NCBI RefSeq assembly: GCF_000284455.1 | Contig: NC_017039.1 | Coordinates: forward strand, 1,020,001-1,052,000 | Origin: Synechocystis sp. PCC 6803 substr. PCC-P | GTDB taxonomy: Bacteria > Cyanobacteriota > Cyanobacteriia > Cyanobacteriales > Microcystaceae | Length of the DNA stretch: 32,000 nucleotides | Direction: 5' to 3' | Shown: positions 1,328 to 9,586 of the stretch, piece after piece | Numbering within the stretch: position 1 is the stretch's first letter | Layout of the letters: each line of letters opens with the position of its first letter | Position numbers and translations under genes: made by a program | Notes under the pieces: model-generated | What the model was told of the DNA's origin: nothing | Database searches by the model: none | What the model saw: the letters and a program-made list of their open reading frames with translations, nothing else

Positions 1328-2263
1328 TTGACTCTCACCCTCTGGAAGCGTTTTCAATCCTCCGCCTCTAACCCTTTAATTTCACCCTGTGACCCTACCG
1401 AGCTCGATATCCTTGCACGCACAACCCTTCTTTCTCCCTGGCAGTTCTACCGCTACGTCTGCAACATTTGCCAGCAAAATGGGCATGAGCGTTTGTATTT
1501 CGGTCATTTGCCTTGTATTTTCTGTGATTATTTGCCAGAACCACTACTTCTTGCCTTTTTTGATCGCTTAGCAGAGAGTGTAGGAAGATCACCGCAGCCC
1601 TTCCCAAAAACAACTCTCCACCTTCAGAGTCTGCAAGGTACTCTGGAACTTCGCATCAGCCATGCTGGAAGTGGAATGATTGGACAGGTAGTTAGGCTTG
1701 ACATAACATACCGGGAGAAGACGCACTCCTGGGCATTTAAAGCCTTTTTCGAACCGGATTTCGTCTGGCAACATGGCGTTTGGTCCGAGATACCAGTAGG
1801 AATATATTTGCGATCCCAGCATGTCACCCGTGACGTAGCGCAGTTCCATGCCGCTGGACTCACCTGGATGCTGTGTGAATGGATCGAACCGGATGATTGT
1901 CCTAAAACTCGCCCTGGACGCTCCTATGATAGTCTAGCTCAACAGCAGCAACTCACACCCCTTAATCCTCTCAACTATGCCAACTACAGTCGCCATGGCA
2001 TTCGCCTTGATCTCGGTGGCATTCAAAAAATCTACTGGGGACGAAGAATTCGCGATTTTGCTTACACGCTGGTTTTCTATCACAGGCGAGTCCATCGGGA
2101 AGGATGGCGCTTTCTCAGTCCCTATCTTAATTGCTGGACTCTCCGCTACCTTCTGGCAAGGGTGAAATGGTTGCTGTTTCTAAGAAGACCAACGTGCGCA
2201 TTTGAACAAAAAGTTACAGTTTCGGACGAAAAGCCTTCAAGGCAAGGGCCTCAAGATTCTTGA
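1328..2263 (+). CDS. Orphan hypothetical protein, possibly a Cys4 zinc ribbon plus a minimal protein-kinase-like core
   Basis: 311-aa ORF, open from 1298. The only plausible start is TTG at 1328, and the first in-frame ATG is at codon 116. It is the sole ORF between the two MITE copies. The motifs CNIC-x14-CIFC, GSGMIGQV, AFK, LDLGGIQ and RDFA were seen by eye. I recognised no family. Confidence 0.5.
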   Translation: MTLTLWKRFQSSASNPLISPCDPTELDILARTTLLSPWQFYRYVCNICQQNGHERLYFGHLPCIFCDYLPEPLLLAFFDRLAESVGRSPQPFPKTTLHLQSLQGTLELRISHAGSGMIGQVVRLDITYREKTHSWAFKAFFEPDFVWQHGVWSEIPVGIYLRSQHVTRDVAQFHAAGLTWMLCEWIEPDDCPKTRPGRSYDSLAQQQQLTPLNPLNYANYSRHGIRLDLGGIQKIYWGRRIRDFAYTLVFYHRRVHREGWRFLSPYLNCWTLRYLLARVKWLLFLRRPTCAFEQKVTVSDEKPSRQGPQDS

Positions 2264-2532: not shown

Positions 2533-4908
2533 TCAAAGGCGGCGTAGAGGGGCGAAACTGGGGTCAATAATTTTCACACCAATGCCGGGAAATTTGATGG
2601 CCAAATTAGCTTTATGGCCTTTGCCTAAAATGTGGGTCACAGTGCCTTCTCCAAAATTGTTGTGCATTACCCGATCGCCAACATTCCAGATTAGGTCTTT
2701 AGCCGGTTGAGTGGACTGGGAACCAGTTTTTTTTCGGGCTTGTTTTTGGGCAATGGAAGGTCCCTTGGGATCGGCGGCAGGAGCATTGCGACCAGTTCTA
2801 CGACCAGTTGAGCCATCGGCCAATAAATCCGGTGGTAATTCCTGGAGAAATTGGGACGGTATTTTGGTTTCTAAAGAACCCCAGATGTAACGCATGCGAG
2901 CATGGGTCAAAAAGAGATTTTCCTGGGCTCTGGTAATGCCCACGTAACATAAACGGCGTTCCTCTTCTAGATCCAAAGGATCATTTAAACTGCGGGCGTG
3001 GGGGCAAGTGCCCTGCTCCAACCCCACTAAGAAGACCACTGGAAATTCCAGGCCCTTAGCAGAGTGGAGAGTCATGAGGGACACTTCGTCTCCGGATTCC
3101 TCCAGGTCATCAAGGTCGGAAGTGAGGGATGCTGAAGCCAAAAAATCCACTAGGCTAGGGTCTTCACTTTCTGCTTCAAACTGTCGCACTGCATTGTCCA
3201 ATTCCCCCAGGTTGGCCAGGCGATTATCCGCTTCTTCGGTGCCTTTTTGCTTTAAGTCGTCCACATAATTGGATTTTTCCAACACTAAGCTGAGGGCTTC
3301 CGACGCAGAAAGCTCACCAATTTGGCTTTGGATTTCCTGGAGCATGCGGGCAAATTGCAGGGTTTTTTTACCTGATCGCCCGGCCAGAGTATTCACCGAA
3401 GTTTCGTCGGTAATAATTTCCCACAGGGGAATGTCCAATTCCTTAGAGGCATTAACAAAACCTTCAATGGTGGATTTACCGATGCCCCGCCGGGGAGTAT
3501 TGATGATACGCAACAAGCTGACCGTATCCGCCGGATTAACTAACACCCGGAGATAGGCAATGGCATCTTTAATTTCCTGGCGATCGTAGAAGCGAAAACC
3601 ACCGACAATATTGTAGCGAATATTATTATTTAATAGCTGTTCTTCAAAGGCCCGGGATTGGGCATTGGTGCGATATAAAATAGCAAAATCACCAAAATTT
3701 AATTCTGGGTTATTTTTCCTTAAGCTCAGAATTTTATTAATCACAAAACGGGACTCATCCCTTTCATCATCCGCCTGGTAAAGGATAATATCATCTCCGC
3801 CACTCCGGGTAGCCTTGAGGATCTTGTCAATCCGTTGGCTATTATGTTCAATTAAATGGTTAGCCGCTTGGAGGATATTTTCCCGAGAACGGTAATTTTC
3901 CTCTAGTTTGACCATGGTGGTCGTTTCCCCATCCAACAGGCGATCGCCAAAATCCTCTTGGAAATTGAGCAGGATGGTAAAGTCTGCCATGCGGAAACTG
4001 TAAATAGATTGGTCTGCATCCCCCACCACAAAAGTGGAACGCCCCCGCCAATCCCACTCCGACTGCCGTTCTTCCCCATTGGTGCTCAGCAGACGAATTA
4101 AATCATATTGGATGCGATTAGTGTCTTGGTATTCATCCACCAAAATATGGTTAAATTTTCGGTGCCAGTAGCCTAAAACTGATTCATTTTGTTGAAATAA
4201 ACGGGTAGGGATGAGAATTAAATCATCAAAATCTAGAGCGTTATTAGCGGCCAATTGATTTTGGTAAGCTTGGTAAACTTCCGCAATGACCCTACCTTTA
4301 TAACTGGGATTTTCCCTTAGATAGGTCTCCGGTGATTGCCCGAGGTTTTTGGCATTACTGACCTGGTAGCGAATACTCTTAGGATTGAACTGTTTTTCGT
4401 CCAAATCCATATCCTTAGTGACAATGGTCTTAAACAAACTTTGCACGTCACTTTCATCAAAAATGGAAAACTGTTTTGTCCAACGGCGGCCACTGCTGTC
4501 CTGATATTTATCAATGTCGTAGCGGAGAATACGAGAACATAGACTGTGGAAAGTGCCAATCCAGAGGGGTTTCGTAACTGTTTTGTACACCCTGGAAAGC
4601 AACTGTTTTTGTTCATATTTCCCCAACAATTCCCACCGTTGGCTAAATTCCTGTTGGGCCCAGGCTTGGGCAAAAATCTTTTCCAAACGTTCCTTCATTT
4701 CCTTGGCGGCTTTATTGGTAAAGGTTACCGCCAGGATATTTTCCGGATTGATGCGATGCTGACGAATTAGATGGGCAATGCGGTAGGTTAGTGCCCTAGT
4801 TTTCCCTGAGCCGGCCCCGGCCACCACCAAAAGAGGGCCACAAAAATGCTCCACCGCCCGCCGTTGGGAAGGATTGAGGTGGGCAAGGTAGTCGGGGACA
4901 ACAGTCAT
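2533..4908 (-). CDS. pcrA: UvrD/PcrA-type ATP-dependent DNA helicase (superfamily 1A)
   Basis: Walker A AGAGSGKT. Helicase motifs VTFTNKAA, ILVDEYQDTN, VGDADQSIYSFR, LEENYRS, YRTN, LMTLHSAKGLEFPVVF and YVGITRA. The C-terminal Tudor-like tail is GDRVMHNNFGEGTV. The track ORF begins at TTG 4938. I prefer ATG 4908 (MTVVPDYL), but the start is uncertain. Confidence 0.9.
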   Translation of the reverse strand: MTVVPDYLAHLNPSQRRAVEHFCGPLLVVAGAGSGKTRALTYRIAHLIRQHRINPENILAVTFTNKAAKEMKERLEKIFAQAWAQQEFSQRWELLGKYEQKQLLSRVYKTVTKPLWIGTFHSLCSRILRYDIDKYQDSSGRRWTKQFSIFDESDVQSLFKTIVTKDMDLDEKQFNPKSIRYQVSNAKNLGQSPETYLRENPSYKGRVIAEVYQAYQNQLAANNALDFDDLILIPTRLFQQNESVLGYWHRKFNHILVDEYQDTNRIQYDLIRLLSTNGEERQSEWDWRGRSTFVVGDADQSIYSFRMADFTILLNFQEDFGDRLLDGETTTMVKLEENYRSRENILQAANHLIEHNSQRIDKILKATRSGGDDIILYQADDERDESRFVINKILSLRKNNPELNFGDFAILYRTNAQSRAFEEQLLNNNIRYNIVGGFRFYDRQEIKDAIAYLRVLVNPADTVSLLRIINTPRRGIGKSTIEGFVNASKELDIPLWEIITDETSVNTLAGRSGKKTLQFARMLQEIQSQIGELSASEALSLVLEKSNYVDDLKQKGTEEADNRLANLGELDNAVRQFEAESEDPSLVDFLASASLTSDLDDLEESGDEVSLMTLHSAKGLEFPVVFLVGLEQGTCPHARSLNDPLDLEEERRLCYVGITRAQENLFLTHARMRYIWGSLETKIPSQFLQELPPDLLADGSTGRRTGRNAPAADPKGPSIAQKQARKKTGSQSTQPAKDLIWNVGDRVMHNNFGEGTVTHILGKGHKANLAIKFPGIGVKIIDPSFAPLRRL

Positions 4909-5079: not shown

Positions 5080-5601
5080 CTAACTATCGGATTCCGCCTC
5101 AAAGCTATCGGAACTTAGGCGAGCCTGTTTGATCAGGGTTTCCGGGCTAACATTGTCGAGAAAATCCCGAAAAGCTTGTCTTTCTTCTTCGTCCGCATCT
5201 CGATCCACGGGAATGGAAGCATCGGCCAACACTTCTTCCATCACCCAAATGGGACTGTCCATCCGCAACGCGAGGGAAATGGCATCACTGGGGCGGCAGT
5301 CAATTTCCCTAATTTGATCCCCCTGGGCACAACAGAGCACAGCGTAAAAGGTATTATCCTGCAGGGAATGAATAATAATTTTTTTGAGGTCCACATCCCA
5401 GGTGGTGAGGAGATTGACCATCAGGTCATGGGTGAGGGGACGGGTGGGCTTTTGATTTTCCAGGGCTCCGATAATCGACCGAGCTTGGTCTTGGCTGATA
5501 TAAATGGGTAATGCCCGCCGTTCAGATCCATCCTTGAGCAATACGATGGGACTGCGACTTACCGCATCGAGGGCAATGCCAGCTACTCTCATCTCAATCA
5601 T
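5080..5601 (-). CDS. Bifunctional nuclease family protein (DUF151/BFN)
   Basis: 173-aa ORF with typical BFN signatures (PIVLLKD, LPIYI, RPLTHDL, DCRPSDAI.LA). It lies 141 nt upstream of pcrA on the same strand. Confidence 0.8.
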   Translation of the reverse strand: MIEMRVAGIALDAVSRSPIVLLKDGSERRALPIYISQDQARSIIGALENQKPTRPLTHDLMVNLLTTWDVDLKKIIIHSLQDNTFYAVLCCAQGDQIREIDCRPSDAISLALRMDSPIWVMEEVLADASIPVDRDADEEERQAFRDFLDNVSPETLIKQARLSSDSFEAESDS

Positions 5602-5773
5602 TGGGTAGATCCTCTGGGGAACATTGACAGCACAATGCAGGTTTTCATTTTAACTTACTCCTACTCCCCCCAGGGTCATGGCCAGTTGGTCACTAAGGAC
5701 CGTTCCCCCTAAGATGGGGAGGGTTGTCAATTGTCAAAATCACATTACTGCTGGTGGTGGGAGACGTACATTA

Positions 5774-6697
5774 ATGAAAATTATTTTGACTGGGGCGACG
5801 GGTTTTGTGGGGTGCTCTTTGGTGCCTCTACTACATCAACAGGGCCATGAGCTAACTTTGCTGGTGCGTAGTGTGTCTAAGGCCCAACGGTTATTTGCCC
5901 CCGGTAGTTTCCCCCAGTTAAAGGCGATCGCCTATGAAGCCACTAAAAGCGGGGACTGGCAAAAGGTCGTTGATGGCCAGGATGCGGTGATTAATTTGGC
6001 GGGGGAACCCATTTCGGAAAGATGGACAGAAGCTTACAAAGCCGAGATTTTTGATAGCAGAAAGCTGGGCACAGAAAAGTTGGTGGAGGCGATCGCCAAA
6101 GCGGATAGAAAACCCCAAGTAATGATTTCTGGGTCAGCCATAGGTTACTACGGCACCAGCGAGACGGCGACTTTTACGGAAAGTAGTAAGCCTGGAGATG
6201 ATTTTCTGGCGGAAGTTTGTCAGGCGTGGGAAAATGCCGCCCACCAGGTAGAACAGTTGGGAGTTCGGTTAGTAGTTTTTCGCATTGGCATTGTGCTGGG
6301 GGCCGATGGGGGAGCGTTGGCCAAAATGTTGCCACCGTTCAAACTCTTTGCTGGGGGGCCATTGGGCAGTGGAGAACAATGGTTTTCTTGGATTGATCGC
6401 CGGGATTTAATTGCTTTAATTGATAAAGCTTTAACGGACTCAACTTTACGGGGAACGTACAATGCCACAGCGCCCAACCCAGTCAAGATGAAGGAATTTT
6501 GCCACACCCTGGGCAAAGTTTTGGCCCGTCCTTCCTGGTTGCCCGTACCGGATATTGCGTTGGAATTATTGCTGGGGGAAGGGGCCAAGTTAGTGCTGGA
6601 GGGGCAGGAAGTTTTGCCGGGGGCCATTAGCAAAACAGATTTTCAGTTCCAGGCTCCAGATTTAGAAACCAGTTTGCGGCAAATTTTAGGGAGTTAA
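5774..6697 (+). CDS. TIGR01777/YfcH-type NAD-dependent epimerase-like SDR with a DUF1731 C-terminus
   Basis: Rossmann motif [13 protein letters not shown] starts at ATG 5774. The track ORF begins at 5678, but the 32 extra residues look non-native. The C-terminal part is typical of this family ([14 protein letters not shown]). Confidence 0.8.
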
Positions 6698-6747: not shown

Positions 6748-7992
6748 TTGATTTCGGTTTCCGCTGTGGCCCAGGTAATTGTCGAAAATCTCTACAAAAG
6801 TTTCCCCGCCCAAGGCAAAAACAAAGCTAAAGACGGAGGAACAGTGAATGTGCTTAAGGCCATTAACCTGGAAATTGCCGACGGGGAATTTATGGTGCTG
6901 GTGGGGCCGTCCGGTTGTGGTAAAAGTACTCTACTGCGGCTCATTGCTGGTTTGGAAACCGTTACAGGGGGTAATATTCTCATTGGCGATCGCCGGGTAA
7001 ATGATTTACCGCCCAAAGCCAGGGACATTGCCATGGTGTTCCAAAGCTATGCCCTCTATCCCCACCTGAGTGTTTACGACAACATTGCCTTTGGTTTGCG
7101 GCGCATGCTGGATCGGGAAAATAATCAGACTGAAGATAAATTCCCCCGCTGGGTAGGGGACAGTTTACGGGGCATTACCAAACCTTTGCCAAAATCTTTA
7201 CACTACCTTTCTGCCCAGGAAAAAGTACTGGCTCAACGGGTCAACCAAGTGGCCCAACAATTGCAAATTGACCATTTACTAGACCGGCTGCCCAAACAAT
7301 TATCCGGCGGCCAAAAGCAACGGGTGGCCCTCGGTCGGGCGATCGCCAGAAATCCCCAAGTCTTTTTGATGGATGAACCCCTGTCCAACCTGGATGCCAA
7401 ACTAAGGGCAGAAACCCGCAGTCAGATTGTGCAAATTCAGCGGCAACTGGGCACCACCACCATTTACGTTACCCACGACCAAACCGAAGCCATGACCATG
7501 GGCGATCGTATTGCGGTGCTTAACCAAGGGGTAATTCAACAAATTGCGCCCCCCTTAACTTTGTACAATCAACCCGCCAACCGTTTTGTGGGGGAATTTA
7601 TCGGCTCTCCTCCCATGAATTTTTTTACCCTCAAAGTGGCATCGGCTTCAGTGTTGCAACATCCTGCCTTTGCCCTCAATCTGCCGGAAAAGTGGCATGG
7701 ACTGGTGGCCCCCTACGTAGGTCGTTCCTTGATCCTAGGGGTACGGCCAGAAAGTTTTATCCCTAGTACCGAAGGGTCCAACGCTTTTCCTGTCACAGTA
7801 AATTTGGTTGAAGCCCTCGGTAACGATACTTTTATCTATGCCCATTTAGTGACAGAGCCGGATCTCACCATCCAAGCCCGCATTGCCCCCGATCATCCCC
7901 TCCAGGTGGGGGAACAACTCTGGCTGACAATCAACCCCGAAAAAATTCATCTGTTCGACGCCAAAACTGAACAGGCGATCGACCAACGTTAA
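6748..7992 (+). CDS. MalK/UgpC-like ABC transporter ATP-binding protein (carbohydrate-type), not next to a permease
   Basis: Walker A GPSGCGKST, signature LSGGQKQR, Walker B FLMDEPLSNLD, H-loop YVTHD, and a C-terminal TOBE-like regulatory domain. TTG start. About 33 extra residues sit between FGLR and RVNQVA compared with E. coli MalK. Confidence 0.85.
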   Translation: MISVSAVAQVIVENLYKSFPAQGKNKAKDGGTVNVLKAINLEIADGEFMVLVGPSGCGKSTLLRLIAGLETVTGGNILIGDRRVNDLPPKARDIAMVFQSYALYPHLSVYDNIAFGLRRMLDRENNQTEDKFPRWVGDSLRGITKPLPKSLHYLSAQEKVLAQRVNQVAQQLQIDHLLDRLPKQLSGGQKQRVALGRAIARNPQVFLMDEPLSNLDAKLRAETRSQIVQIQRQLGTTTIYVTHDQTEAMTMGDRIAVLNQGVIQQIAPPLTLYNQPANRFVGEFIGSPPMNFFTLKVASASVLQHPAFALNLPEKWHGLVAPYVGRSLILGVRPESFIPSTEGSNAFPVTVNLVEALGNDTFIYAHLVTEPDLTIQARIAPDHPLQVGEQLWLTINPEKIHLFDAKTEQAIDQR

Positions 7993-8098: not shown

Positions 8099-9586
8099 AT
8101 GGATCTGCTCTGCACCCGCCCCGGTTGTGCCCGTTTAAATTCTTTTCCTGACCTGGATAATCGCAATACTCTGCAAACAGTACAACAAAGGTTTTGCACC
8201 AGTTGTCGGATGCCACTAATTTTGGCGGGCAGATATTTGCCAGTGAAACTCCTGGGACAGGGGGGCTTTGGGGCGGCCTATCTGGCCCTAGATCGATTTA
8301 CCCCCACCATGCGTTTTTGTGTGGTGAAGCAATTTCAACCGTCAGGGAATTTAAATCAAGAGCAATTAGATTTGGCTTTGTCCCTATTTGAACGGGAAGC
8401 GGTGGTGTTGGAAAAGTTGGGCAATCGCCATGACCAGATTCCCGATTTATTTGCTTATTTTCCCCTGTTGGTGGACGATCCCCGCACTGGTAAACAGGAT
8501 CAGTTTTTTTATTTGGTGCAGGAATTTATTAACGGTCAGGATTTGGAAAAAACCGTTGAAAAACATGGCCCCCTGTCGGAAGCGGAAGTGCGTTGGGTGC
8601 TGACGGAAATGCTAAAAATTCTTAGTTTCGTCCACGGCACCGGAGCCATTCATCGGGATATTAAACCGTCTAATTTAATGCGGGACCAAGAGGGCAAATT
8701 GTATCTGTTGGATTTTGGCGCAGTAAAGCAAGCAACCGCCGGGGTGGGGGCCAGTAACGAAGGTTCCACGGGCATTTACTCCATGGGTTTTGCGCCACCG
8801 GAACAGATGGCTGGTAACCAGGTTTATCCCGCCACGGATTTATATGCTTTGGCTGTGACCTGTCTTTACCTGTTAACGGGCAAAACAGCCCAGGATTTGT
8901 ACGACGCTTACCATAACCAATGGAATTGGCGATCGCCTGGTTTGAAGGTGAGCCAGCCCTTGGCCGATGTGATTGACCGTTTGCTTTTACCCACTCCCAA
9001 GGACCGTTACGCCAGTGCGGAAGAGGTTTTGGCGGTGCTGAACGGCGGTAAAGGCAATCAGGGTAAAGCTCCGCCAGGGGCCACAGTTTCCACTCCCCAA
9101 GGTACCAATACCCAAATTCAACCAACCCCAGCAAGTTCTGCTTCTCCCCTAACAGCGCCAAAGACACCGGGTAAAATTAGCCAGGCGGTACAAAATTTGC
9201 CGGTTCTCAAAGTTCTGTTCCAAGGGGCTTTAACTGGTTCCGCTTTGGTTTTCTGGGGCATTATTGCTGTGAGCCTTTTTCCCCAGACCAATATTAGTTT
9301 GGGTATTTTGGGCATGGTGGTGGCGGGGATAATCTTGGCCCAATTCAAGCGTTGGTTAGAAGTAACGGAAATGTTGAGCCTCAATACCCTAACCATTCTG
9401 GCCCTATTAGCTGTGCCGGGTTTGAGCCGTTGGCCAAAGATTGTCGAACTAGCGACCCAACTTGATTTCCCGGTTCTAGTTACGGTCATTATTGCCGCTA
9501 TTGCCGGGGCGATCGCCGTAGTAGCAACCATTGCCCTATTTTTACTAATTCTCAAGCTACTTTTTGCAGTTTTAACCAGGGTTTGA
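8099..9586 (+). CDS. spkF: Hanks-type Ser/Thr protein kinase with an N-terminal 4-Cys module and a C-terminal multi-TM region
   Basis: Motifs LGQGGFGAAY, VVKQF, HRDIKPSNL, DFGAVK and PPE. The N-terminus carries C5-x4-C10 ... C33-x2-C36. The last ~130 residues are hydrophobic helices. From memory, the position between the ABC ATPase and purC matches slr1225 (spkF). Confidence 0.85.
   Translation: MDLLCTRPGCARLNSFPDLDNRNTLQTVQQRFCTSCRMPLILAGRYLPVKLLGQGGFGAAYLALDRFTPTMRFCVVKQFQPSGNLNQEQLDLALSLFEREAVVLEKLGNRHDQIPDLFAYFPLLVDDPRTGKQDQFFYLVQEFINGQDLEKTVEKHGPLSEAEVRWVLTEMLKILSFVHGTGAIHRDIKPSNLMRDQEGKLYLLDFGAVKQATAGVGASNEGSTGIYSMGFAPPEQMAGNQVYPATDLYALAVTCLYLLTGKTAQDLYDAYHNQWNWRSPGLKVSQPLADVIDRLLLPTPKDRYASAEEVLAVLNGGKGNQGKAPPGATVSTPQGTNTQIQPTPASSASPLTAPKTPGKISQAVQNLPVLKVLFQGALTGSALVFWGIIAVSLFPQTNISLGILGMVVAGIILAQFKRWLEVTEMLSLNTLTILALLAVPGLSRWPKIVELATQLDFPVLVTVIIAAIAGAIAVVATIALFLLILKLLFAVLTRV

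Follow-up and report, generated by a model that had tools for sequence, protein, structure and literature searches.

Slr1222 of Synechocystis sp. PCC 6803, a divergent minimal protein-kinase-like protein that has probably lost canonical catalysis

RIO kinases are compact protein-kinase-like (PKL) proteins. Helices extend them at the N-terminus, the activation loop and the substrate-binding subdomains are missing, and the metal-binding Asp is followed by only a few helices; their nucleotide loop is of the STGKEA type and their catalytic Asp is kept. We compare them and other kinases with Slr1222, the product of an open reading frame (ORF) in a 32,000-nucleotide stretch of Synechocystis sp. PCC 6803 substr. 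PCC-P (contig NC_017039.1, positions 1,020,001 to 1,052,000 of the forward strand), which as a whole is called the window and from whose first letter all coordinates are counted. A sequence-only reading of this stretch had described the ORF as a Cys4 zinc ribbon fused to a minimal, possibly catalytically altered kinase-like core riding between two MITEs (miniature inverted-repeat transposable elements). Our explanation, to which we give a probability of roughly 0.55, is that Slr1222 is a divergent minimal kinase-like protein in which canonical catalysis has been lost, and we would class it as a new family of the PKL superfamily, one for which Pfam has no model. The ORF, whose coordinates, strand, length and TTG-only start had been read correctly, corresponds to slr1222 of Synechocystis PCC 6803, and its product is 100% identical to a 311-aa NCBI entry named 'hypothetical protein [unclassified Synechocystis]'.

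1328-2263, + strand: slr1222 coding sequence, 311 aa plus stop, TTG start (from the ORF list)
1328-1330, + strand: TTG start codon; the open frame has no other one upstream of M117

Rio1 of A. fulgidus (PDB 1ZP9, 1ZTH, 3RE4, and 4JIN) gave the best structural match in both Foldseek searches of the PDB, and Slr1222 shares all the architectural features of RIO kinases named above. However, it has no match to the RIO1 hidden Markov model (PF01163), reaches TM-scores of ~0.26-0.37, carries a canonical GxGxxGxV loop, and lacks the catalytic Asp, which places it outside the RIO family. Eukaryotic-like Ser/Thr kinases (PF00069), such as SpkF encoded in the same window, share with Slr1222 the Gly loop, the AxK motif, the alphaC Glu, the hinge, and a D-x-G motif in canonical order, whereas the HRD Asp, the APE motif, the activation segment, and helices alphaG-alphaI are all missing from Slr1222. 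In pseudokinases with Asn at the position of the HRD Asp, such as HER3/ErbB3, the Lys and the DFG Asp are kept and the catalytic base is lost. These are full-size eukaryotic kinase domains that are not close relatives of Slr1222, for which they may serve as a functional analogy only. Together with SteC, the effector kinases OspG/NleH and HopBF1 (compare the Legionella kinome, PMC9758233) appear to resemble Slr1222, as an analogy only, in that their PKL domain is very small and stops shortly after the DFG region. These effector mini-kinases are secreted by pathogens and keep the catalytic Asp, whereas Slr1222 is encoded on the cyanobacterial chromosome and is set apart by its helical N-terminal domain.

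Homologues and the kinase-like N-lobe

The Slr1222 clade was restricted to cyanobacteria. The ortholog in S. salina LEGE 00031 is 95% identical, and the dN/dS of 0.21 between the two genes indicates purifying selection. A further 36 homologues at 33-73% identity and 46 genome loci, all cyanobacterial, were recovered; the homologues are spread over many orders and include the genera Phormidium, Geitlerinema, Baaleninema, Coleofasciculus, Moorena, Symploca, Caldora, Arthrospira/Limnospira, Lyngbya, and Prochloron, among others. Conservation within the clade was read from an alignment of 32 homologues covering this same range of identity. Residues G114, G116, G119, V121, A136, K138, E154, E184, W185, I186, D228, G230, G231, and Q233 are invariant in it, and D243 is ~90% conserved.

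The link to kinases came through more distant proteins. When the clade profile was scored against 1.84 billion representative proteins, 82 were retrieved, 66 of them distant relatives (E 4e-13 to 9e-4, 112-756 aa); 65 of the 66 were aligned (alignment A2), and residue counts for these relatives are given out of 65. Comparison of the clade with 36 trimmed distant relatives by hhalign gave a probability of 99.9% and an E-value of 1e-31. A Pfam scan of the 65 matched FTA2 in 11 (best E 9.5e-7), the commonest assignment, Pkinase in four, and APH in one; FTA2 also matched 2 of the 32 clade members weakly. FTA2 (PF13095) is itself a fungal kinetochore protein family, and it belongs to the PKinase clan, CL0016 (PMC9758233). 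The profile of the distant relatives matched 174 PDB sequences at E <=10, and all 60 among the matches listed were protein kinases. The best was CDKL3 (E 0.0017), with the Gly loop, AxK, alphaC Glu, and hinge in register; SteC (8jbi_D) was among the weak matches (E 0.046). With the SpkF family, the distant relatives aligned over the N-lobe at E 0.0027 by hhalign.

The N-lobe motifs of Slr1222 are as follows:

1667-1690, + strand: Gly-rich loop G114-S-G116-M-I-G119-Q-V121 in the beta1-beta2 hairpin, invariant in the 32 homologues
1733-1741, + strand: A136-F-K138 with the beta3 'VAIK' lysine, aligned with the AxK of PDB kinases and SpkF
1787-1789, + strand: E154, equivalent of the alphaC Glu, in helix 151-163 and aligned with the alphaC Glu of CDKL3
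1877-1885, + strand: E184-W-I186, end of beta5 and hinge, invariant, aligned with the FEFI(D)/QEFI hinge of CDKL3/SpkF

These four roles had been proposed from the sequence, and they were supported by the profile alignment to PDB kinases, by hhalign to SpkF, by the AlphaFold model, and by Foldseek. The Gly loop aligns with the GxGxxGxV of CDKL3, CDK8, and SpkF, and G116 is found in 65/65 distant relatives. The beta3 Lys and the alphaC Glu, each invariant in the clade, recur in 64/65 and 63/65, respectively, in register with the kinase profiles.

The linker between beta3 and alphaC, F-V-W147-Q-H149-G150-x-W152-x-E154-I-P (residues 147-158, window 1766-1801, + strand), is almost invariant, and its H-G...E is common to the distant relatives (H in 40/65, G in 52/65). 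It is a family signature that has no counterpart in canonical kinases.

The full AlphaFold model of Slr1222 (predicted local distance difference test, pLDDT, 84; predicted TM-score, pTM, 0.81) showed an N-lobe in the order beta1 (104-115), Gly loop, beta2 (119-128), beta3 (131-140, with K138), helix 151-163 (with E154), beta4, beta5, and hinge. The five-stranded N-lobe with alphaC and a Gly-rich hairpin that characterizes the PKL fold is thus present, and the C-lobe is vestigial. Among the best 50 Foldseek matches of this model in the PDB, 45 were protein kinases, headed by Rio1 (E 0.012), and the other five were chains of PA5185. A core-only model (residues 88-290) was predicted at lower confidence (pLDDT 77) and did not improve the Foldseek E-values; its best 50 matches were all PKL folds, including Rio1 (probability 1.00), APH(2''), and macrolide phosphotransferase, with N-lobe superpositions of 80-105 columns at 3-5 A root-mean-square deviation. 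In the BFVD viral library, the four best matches were protein kinases of giant viruses. Taken with the in-register profile alignment and the hhalign result for SpkF, the AlphaFold topology and these kinase-dominated lists bear out the description of the core as minimal and protein-kinase-like. PKL homology of the N-lobe is reasonably shown, and the fold of Slr1222 is probably PKL.

Tandem paralogues were seen among the distant relatives with a retained catalytic Asp. One 7.8-kb contig of a 'Cyanobacteria bacterium' metagenome-assembled genome (MAG) carries at least two of them, separated by a 608-aa gene (L053 2604-7821), and two adjacent genes adjoin flagellin genes in another MAG (L054 9222-10741). 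An organism label was available for 4 of 20 distant relatives, and all four came from a single 'Cyanobacteria bacterium' MAG. HEAT repeats were found in 11/65, and some have a DSP-type phosphatase domain.

The reduced C-lobe and its catalytic-loop equivalent

The C-terminal half of the domain contains three elements:

1952-1990, + strand: putative catalytic-loop equivalent L209-T-x-L-N213-P-L-N216-x-x-N219-Y220-N/S221, Asn-rich, with no acidic residue
2000-2020, + strand: I225-R-L-D228-L-G230-G231, probable beta8 with the DFG-type metal-binding Asp, from conservation and the hhalign extension to SpkF
2042-2179, + strand: remnant of a reduced C-lobe, helices 239-258, 260-266, and 269-284 (AlphaFold, pLDDT 82-88)

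In the distant relatives, D-[DEN]-x3-N is followed, after four residues, by [IV]-R-[IV]-D-x-G-G; the first D is present in 58/65, the N in 56/65, and the second D and the G in 64/65. This module is probably an HRD-Asp...Asn...DFG arrangement with a short beta7-beta8 hairpin, the catalytic loop and DFG being ~13 residues apart compared with 18 in protein kinase A (PKA). A greedy hhalign extension placed, at low confidence, the D-x4-N onto HRDIKPSN and the IRVDyGG onto LLDFGA of SpkF. Since the D-x4-N...D-x-G pattern is conserved in the wider family, we infer that D228-L-G230, in which D228 and G230 are invariant in the clade, holds the DFG-type metal-binding Asp rather than the catalytic-loop Asp.

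The sequence-only reading had taken D228 for the catalytic Asp, with Q233 in place of the catalytic Asn, and D243 for the DFG Asp, in an active kinase preceded by a zinc ribbon and carried between MITEs. Its spacings are PKA-like (90 residues from K138 to D228 and 15 from D228 to D243), and within the clade D228 and Q233 never vary and D243 seldom does. However, what the wider family retains is an upstream D-x4-N followed by the D228-x-G, whereas conservation of Q233 and D243 stops at the border of the clade, and the predicted helix 239-258 encloses D243. In the wider family, the conservation expected of K138, D228, and D243 was found for the first two only. As set out below, the Cys4 module is also absent from the closest homologues, S. 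salina has no downstream MITE, and other homologues occupy unrelated contexts; we consider this combination of claims very improbable. The residue positions behind it were read correctly from the translation, both for C45-x2-C48-x14-C63-x2-C66, G114-S-G-M-I-G119-Q-V121, A-F-K138, and E154 and for C183-E-W-I-E187, L-D228-L-G-G-I-Q233, and R-D243-F-A. The suspicion that catalysis was altered was sound as well, but for another reason, namely the missing catalytic-loop Asp.

N213, N216, N219, and Y220 are invariant in the 32 homologues, and no D or E occurs at residues 209-224 in any of them. The catalytic-loop Asp thus appears to be lost in the Slr1222 clade under either of the two alignment registers that were obtained, and the catalytic-loop Asn may be kept as N219 or N221. 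The segment G238-R-R240 is invariant in this clade alone and lies, with D243, in the C-lobe remnant. After D228 there are ~55 helical residues with no APE and no equivalents of alphaG-alphaI, in place of an activation segment and alphaF-alphaI.

The last predicted helix, LRYLLARVKWLLFLRR (residues 269-284, window 2132-2179, + strand), is hydrophobic and basic, and this character is kept across homologues, the sequence itself not. Packing against the domain is one possible role, membrane association as an amphipathic helix another.

From these observations, Slr1222 would consist of an N-terminal helical domain (~22-88) and a minimal PKL domain (~95-285). The N-lobe of the latter is predicted to be complete, with five strands, the GxGxxGxV loop, K138, E154, and the E184-W-I hinge. 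The C-lobe would be drastically reduced, to a short alphaE-like helix, the catalytic-loop equivalent at 209-221, beta8 with D228-x-G230, and three helices. The residues that position ATP and Mg2+ would be retained (Gly loop, the K138-E154 pair, D228, and probably the loop Asn), and the one that orients and deprotonates the acceptor hydroxyl would be lost, an invariant LNPLNxxNYN standing in its place. Slr1222 would then bind ATP/Mg2+ with little or no canonical phosphotransfer. It would serve as a pseudokinase or a regulator that depends on nucleotide, or at most transfer phosphate slowly and in an atypical way. The motif mapping in the C-lobe, the nucleotide binding, and the loss of catalysis are each put forward here as probable.

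The same residues may be seen as a working active site. Some kinases with Asn at the HRD position, for example HER3, keep weak activity, and PKL folds catalyse other chemistries, as in SidJ. Slr1222 could accordingly be an active, atypical enzyme in which the Asn-rich loop (N213/N216/N219/N221), Q233, and G238-R-R240 form an alternative site, either as a small-molecule or protein kinase that dispenses with the general base or as an enzyme of AMPylation (SelO-like) or glutamylation (SidJ-like). The strict invariance of the loop, GRR, and Q233 across 32 homologues suggests a precise functional site rather than decay, and all ATP/Mg-binding residues are retained. On the other side, no clade member has an acidic residue in the catalytic-loop segment, the distant relatives keep D-x4-N, making the loss specific to the clade, and the non-conserved neighbourhood points to no substrate. 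No conserved gene partner, and hence no functional hint, was found around three distant orthologues, the closest homologue, and the 46 genome loci, and the clade has no fused domains that would point to a substrate or partner of Slr1222. An active enzyme is, in our judgement, unlikely, if far from negligible, and the conserved loop, Q233, and GRR leave open a re-purposed active site.

Several results weigh against a divergent kinase-like protein with lost catalysis. Neither the single Slr1222 sequence nor the clade profile had a relevant match in Pfam, NCBIfam, or the PDB. Four distant relatives rechecked singly matched Pkinase/FTA2 below the gathering thresholds and over the N-lobe only (profile positions ~4-65), and the HHalign probability for the SpkF family was just 11%. 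The Foldseek scores are weak (E 0.008-0.1, TM 0.2-0.37, none at E <=0.001). The C-lobe mapping is built on motif spacing and the low-confidence greedy alignment; the catalytic Asp of the relatives pairs with N213 in MAFFT and with L215 in hhalign, so the register differs; and the model is least confident in the C-lobe, where residues 221-225 have pLDDT <50 in the core-only version. Finally, no Slr1222 peptide occurred in the searched proteome table of a recent preprint (bioRxiv 10.64898/2025.12.20.695498).

The searches behind these scores can be specified further. Pkinase (PF00069) had no match at E <=10 in Slr1222 or in any of the 32 clade members, and the distant relatives reach ~19 bits at most, under the gathering threshold of 31.7 bits. 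In three of the rechecked distant relatives, FTA2 fell below its 30.2-bit threshold and covered ~35-45 N-lobe residues. The clade profile compared directly with the SpkF family by hhalign gave no meaningful alignment (E 0.41), and phmmer of one distant relative (P0065) against the PDB gave E ~1 only. Matches to a zinc knuckle (detailed below), CD8 alpha, and thimet oligopeptidase in the direct searches, and to PAZ_4 in 6/32 clade members (best E 0.015), were treated as noise. The profile searches suggested by the sequence-only reading thus gave no direct kinase match for Slr1222, although the profile of the distant relatives aligned with PDB kinase N-lobes; the structural comparison it also suggested returned almost only kinase folds, at weak scores (E ~0.01, TM ~0.3).

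Such scores invite the view that Slr1222 is not homologous to kinases at all, but an unrelated alpha/beta protein, perhaps binding another ligand, whose N-lobe resemblance arose by convergence. All its sequence links to kinase profiles are sub-threshold and span ~60-80 N-lobe residues, no Foldseek match reached E <=0.001 or TM 0.4, and the C-terminal half has no significant structural match. Yet GxGxxGxV, AxK, Glu, and hinge follow in the right order and spacing, with D-x4-N...D-x-G after them in the relatives; three independent structure searches returned almost exclusively PKL folds; and the 60 listed PDB profile matches contained kinases only. We regard convergence as improbable; the C-lobe is too reduced to add to the structural scores.

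A translated chromosomal gene between two independent MITE insertions

No ATG lies upstream of M117 in the slr1222 frame, which opens at 1298, 8 bases past the end of the upstream MITE. The weak TTG start noted from the sequence is nevertheless real: translation initiation site (TIS)-Ribo-seq and Ribo-seq coverage are reported to support an extension of Slr1222 at the N-terminus by 116 aa, with initiation from the rare TTG (bioRxiv 10.64898/2025.12.20.695498), and the S. salina ortholog keeps this codon (L006, position 4001). The original annotation was shorter and left out the first 116 residues, including G114 and G116 of the Gly loop. The length of 321 aa given in the main text and Fig. S13A of the preprint (bioRxiv 10.64898/2025.12.20.695498) is probably a typo, because the ORF from 1328 gives 195 + 116 = 311 residues and the frame cannot start before 1298. 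Expression is thus backed by ribosome profiling, although not by peptides in the proteome table searched.

The idea that slr1222 is a decaying or spurious ORF, made or broken by MITE insertions, could draw on the TTG-only start, a MITE ending 39 nt upstream of it, the shorter original annotation, and the missing peptides. It is hardly credible when the full length is conserved at dN/dS 0.21, homologues at 33-73% identity occur in many cyanobacterial orders, Ribo-seq and TIS signals support translation, and the fold prediction is confident. Conservation and ribosome profiling refute it; slr1222 is a real, functional chromosomal gene.

Two short ORFs accompany the gene. A 44-aa TTG ORF (1156-1290, + strand) lies wholly within the upstream MITE, and a 60-aa GTG ORF (1389-1571, + strand) lies out of frame in the 5' part of slr1222. 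TIS signals are described for 'slr1222-uORF2' (44 aa) and for an internal out-of-frame small ORF, 'IOF(L)', of 60 aa with a predicted transmembrane helix (bioRxiv 10.64898/2025.12.20.695498), and these sizes match the two window ORFs. Because the MITE-internal ORF has the size of uORF2, the upstream MITE may contribute a translated upstream ORF (uORF). A promoter/terminator scan around slr1222 gave counts equal to the shuffle expectation.

The region that had been read as a zinc ribbon is a conserved helical domain, common to the distant relatives:

1391-1591, + strand: predicted N-terminal helical domain, ~residues 22-88, holding C45, C48, C63, and C66 (AlphaFold)

Its helices (23-32, 37-51, 63-66, and 71-87) are predicted with pLDDT >90; L34, F40, Y57, F58, F77, D79, and L81 are invariant in the 32 homologues, and an LDxLA motif is common to Slr1222 and the distant relatives. 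Conservation is partial for C45 and lacking for C48, C63, and C66. In P0002, the nearest homologue from another genus (73% identity), the four positions are occupied by R, D, R, and R, and the S. salina ortholog already carries C63S. The four cysteines, moreover, sit within predicted helices 37-51 and 63-66, and the only Pfam zinc signal was zf-CCHC_2 in 1 of the 32 clade members (E 0.026, 14.8 bits against a cutoff of 27). A Cys4 zinc ribbon or knuckle was therefore rejected, and a conserved zinc site is absent from the Slr1222 clade.

The four-Cys module that had been pointed out ahead of the kinase domain of SpkF is present in its sequence, as C5-x4-C10...C33-x2-C36 (window 8099-8215, + strand) followed by the Pkinase domain at aa 49-310.

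Two MITE copies of 223-224 nt bracket slr1222 in opposite orientations, with arms of 196 nt that are 93% complementary. The terminal inverted-repeat motif of the TAACGTGAGTTCGGG type occurs 4 times in the window against 0.01 expected.

1067-1289, no strand assigned: upstream MITE copy, terminal inverted repeats TAACGTGAGTTCGGG; at the same site in S. salina
2308-2531, no strand assigned: downstream MITE copy in inverted orientation, abutting the pcrA stop codon; absent from S. salina

S. salina has the upstream MITE at the identical site with 96% nucleotide identity and lacks the downstream one, the slr1222 stop being 44 bp from the pcrA stop. Since S. salina carries the upstream copy only, the two MITEs inserted independently of each other into the intergenic DNA flanking a resident gene, and they do not form a cargo-carrying unit. 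Homologues in other genera lie in unrelated chromosomal contexts among housekeeping genes. The gene does therefore stand between two flanking copies, as had been read, but it is not their cargo, and a composite transposon or MITE-bracketed cargo was rejected. A search of the plasmid collection gave no match to the MITE sequence, and no literature specific to Synechocystis MITEs was found.

The downstream MITE comes to within 2 nt of the pcrA stop codon (2533-2535, minus strand), and the last pcrA codons encode ...RRL before the stop in the window and ...RRP in S. salina (L006 4936-4985). As the end of pcrA differs between the strains, this gene was affected at its 3' end by the insertion or by the repair of it.

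The neighbours of slr1222 are ordinary chromosomal genes:

63-1016, + strand: slr1220, a PRC-barrel protein found in the proteomics data of the preprint
5080-5601, - strand: bifunctional-nuclease-domain protein
5678-6697, + strand: NAD-dependent epimerase with DUF1731
6748-7992, + strand: MalK-type ABC ATPase

Meaning for the Synechocystis kinome and the wider family

A tentative extension, which we regard as plausible at best, is that the Slr1222 clade comprises cyanobacterial minimal pseudokinases or re-purposed enzymes whose origin lies in active mini-kinases of an undescribed family without a Pfam model. This parent family would be one that keeps K, E, D-x4-N, and D-x-G and occurs as tandem paralogues in uncultured bacteria, with frequent fusions to HEAT repeats or to a domain resembling tyrosine phosphatases. 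If so, the Asn-rich loop, Q233, and GRR would define a new nucleotide-dependent regulatory or catalytic site.

The significance is moderate, as divergent kinase-like families turn up regularly. Synechocystis 6803 nevertheless serves as the chief model among cyanobacteria, and the Spk proteins are what is usually counted as its kinome. Slr1222 would extend this set by a kinase-like protein so far unrecognised and invisible to standard annotation, having no Pfam or NCBIfam match, and it would mark a wider, undescribed mini-kinase family. The relatives with the catalytic Asp and the clade without it would offer a natural contrast for studying how bacterial pseudokinases originate, and the genetic tractability of Synechocystis makes knock-out and point-mutant tests straightforward.

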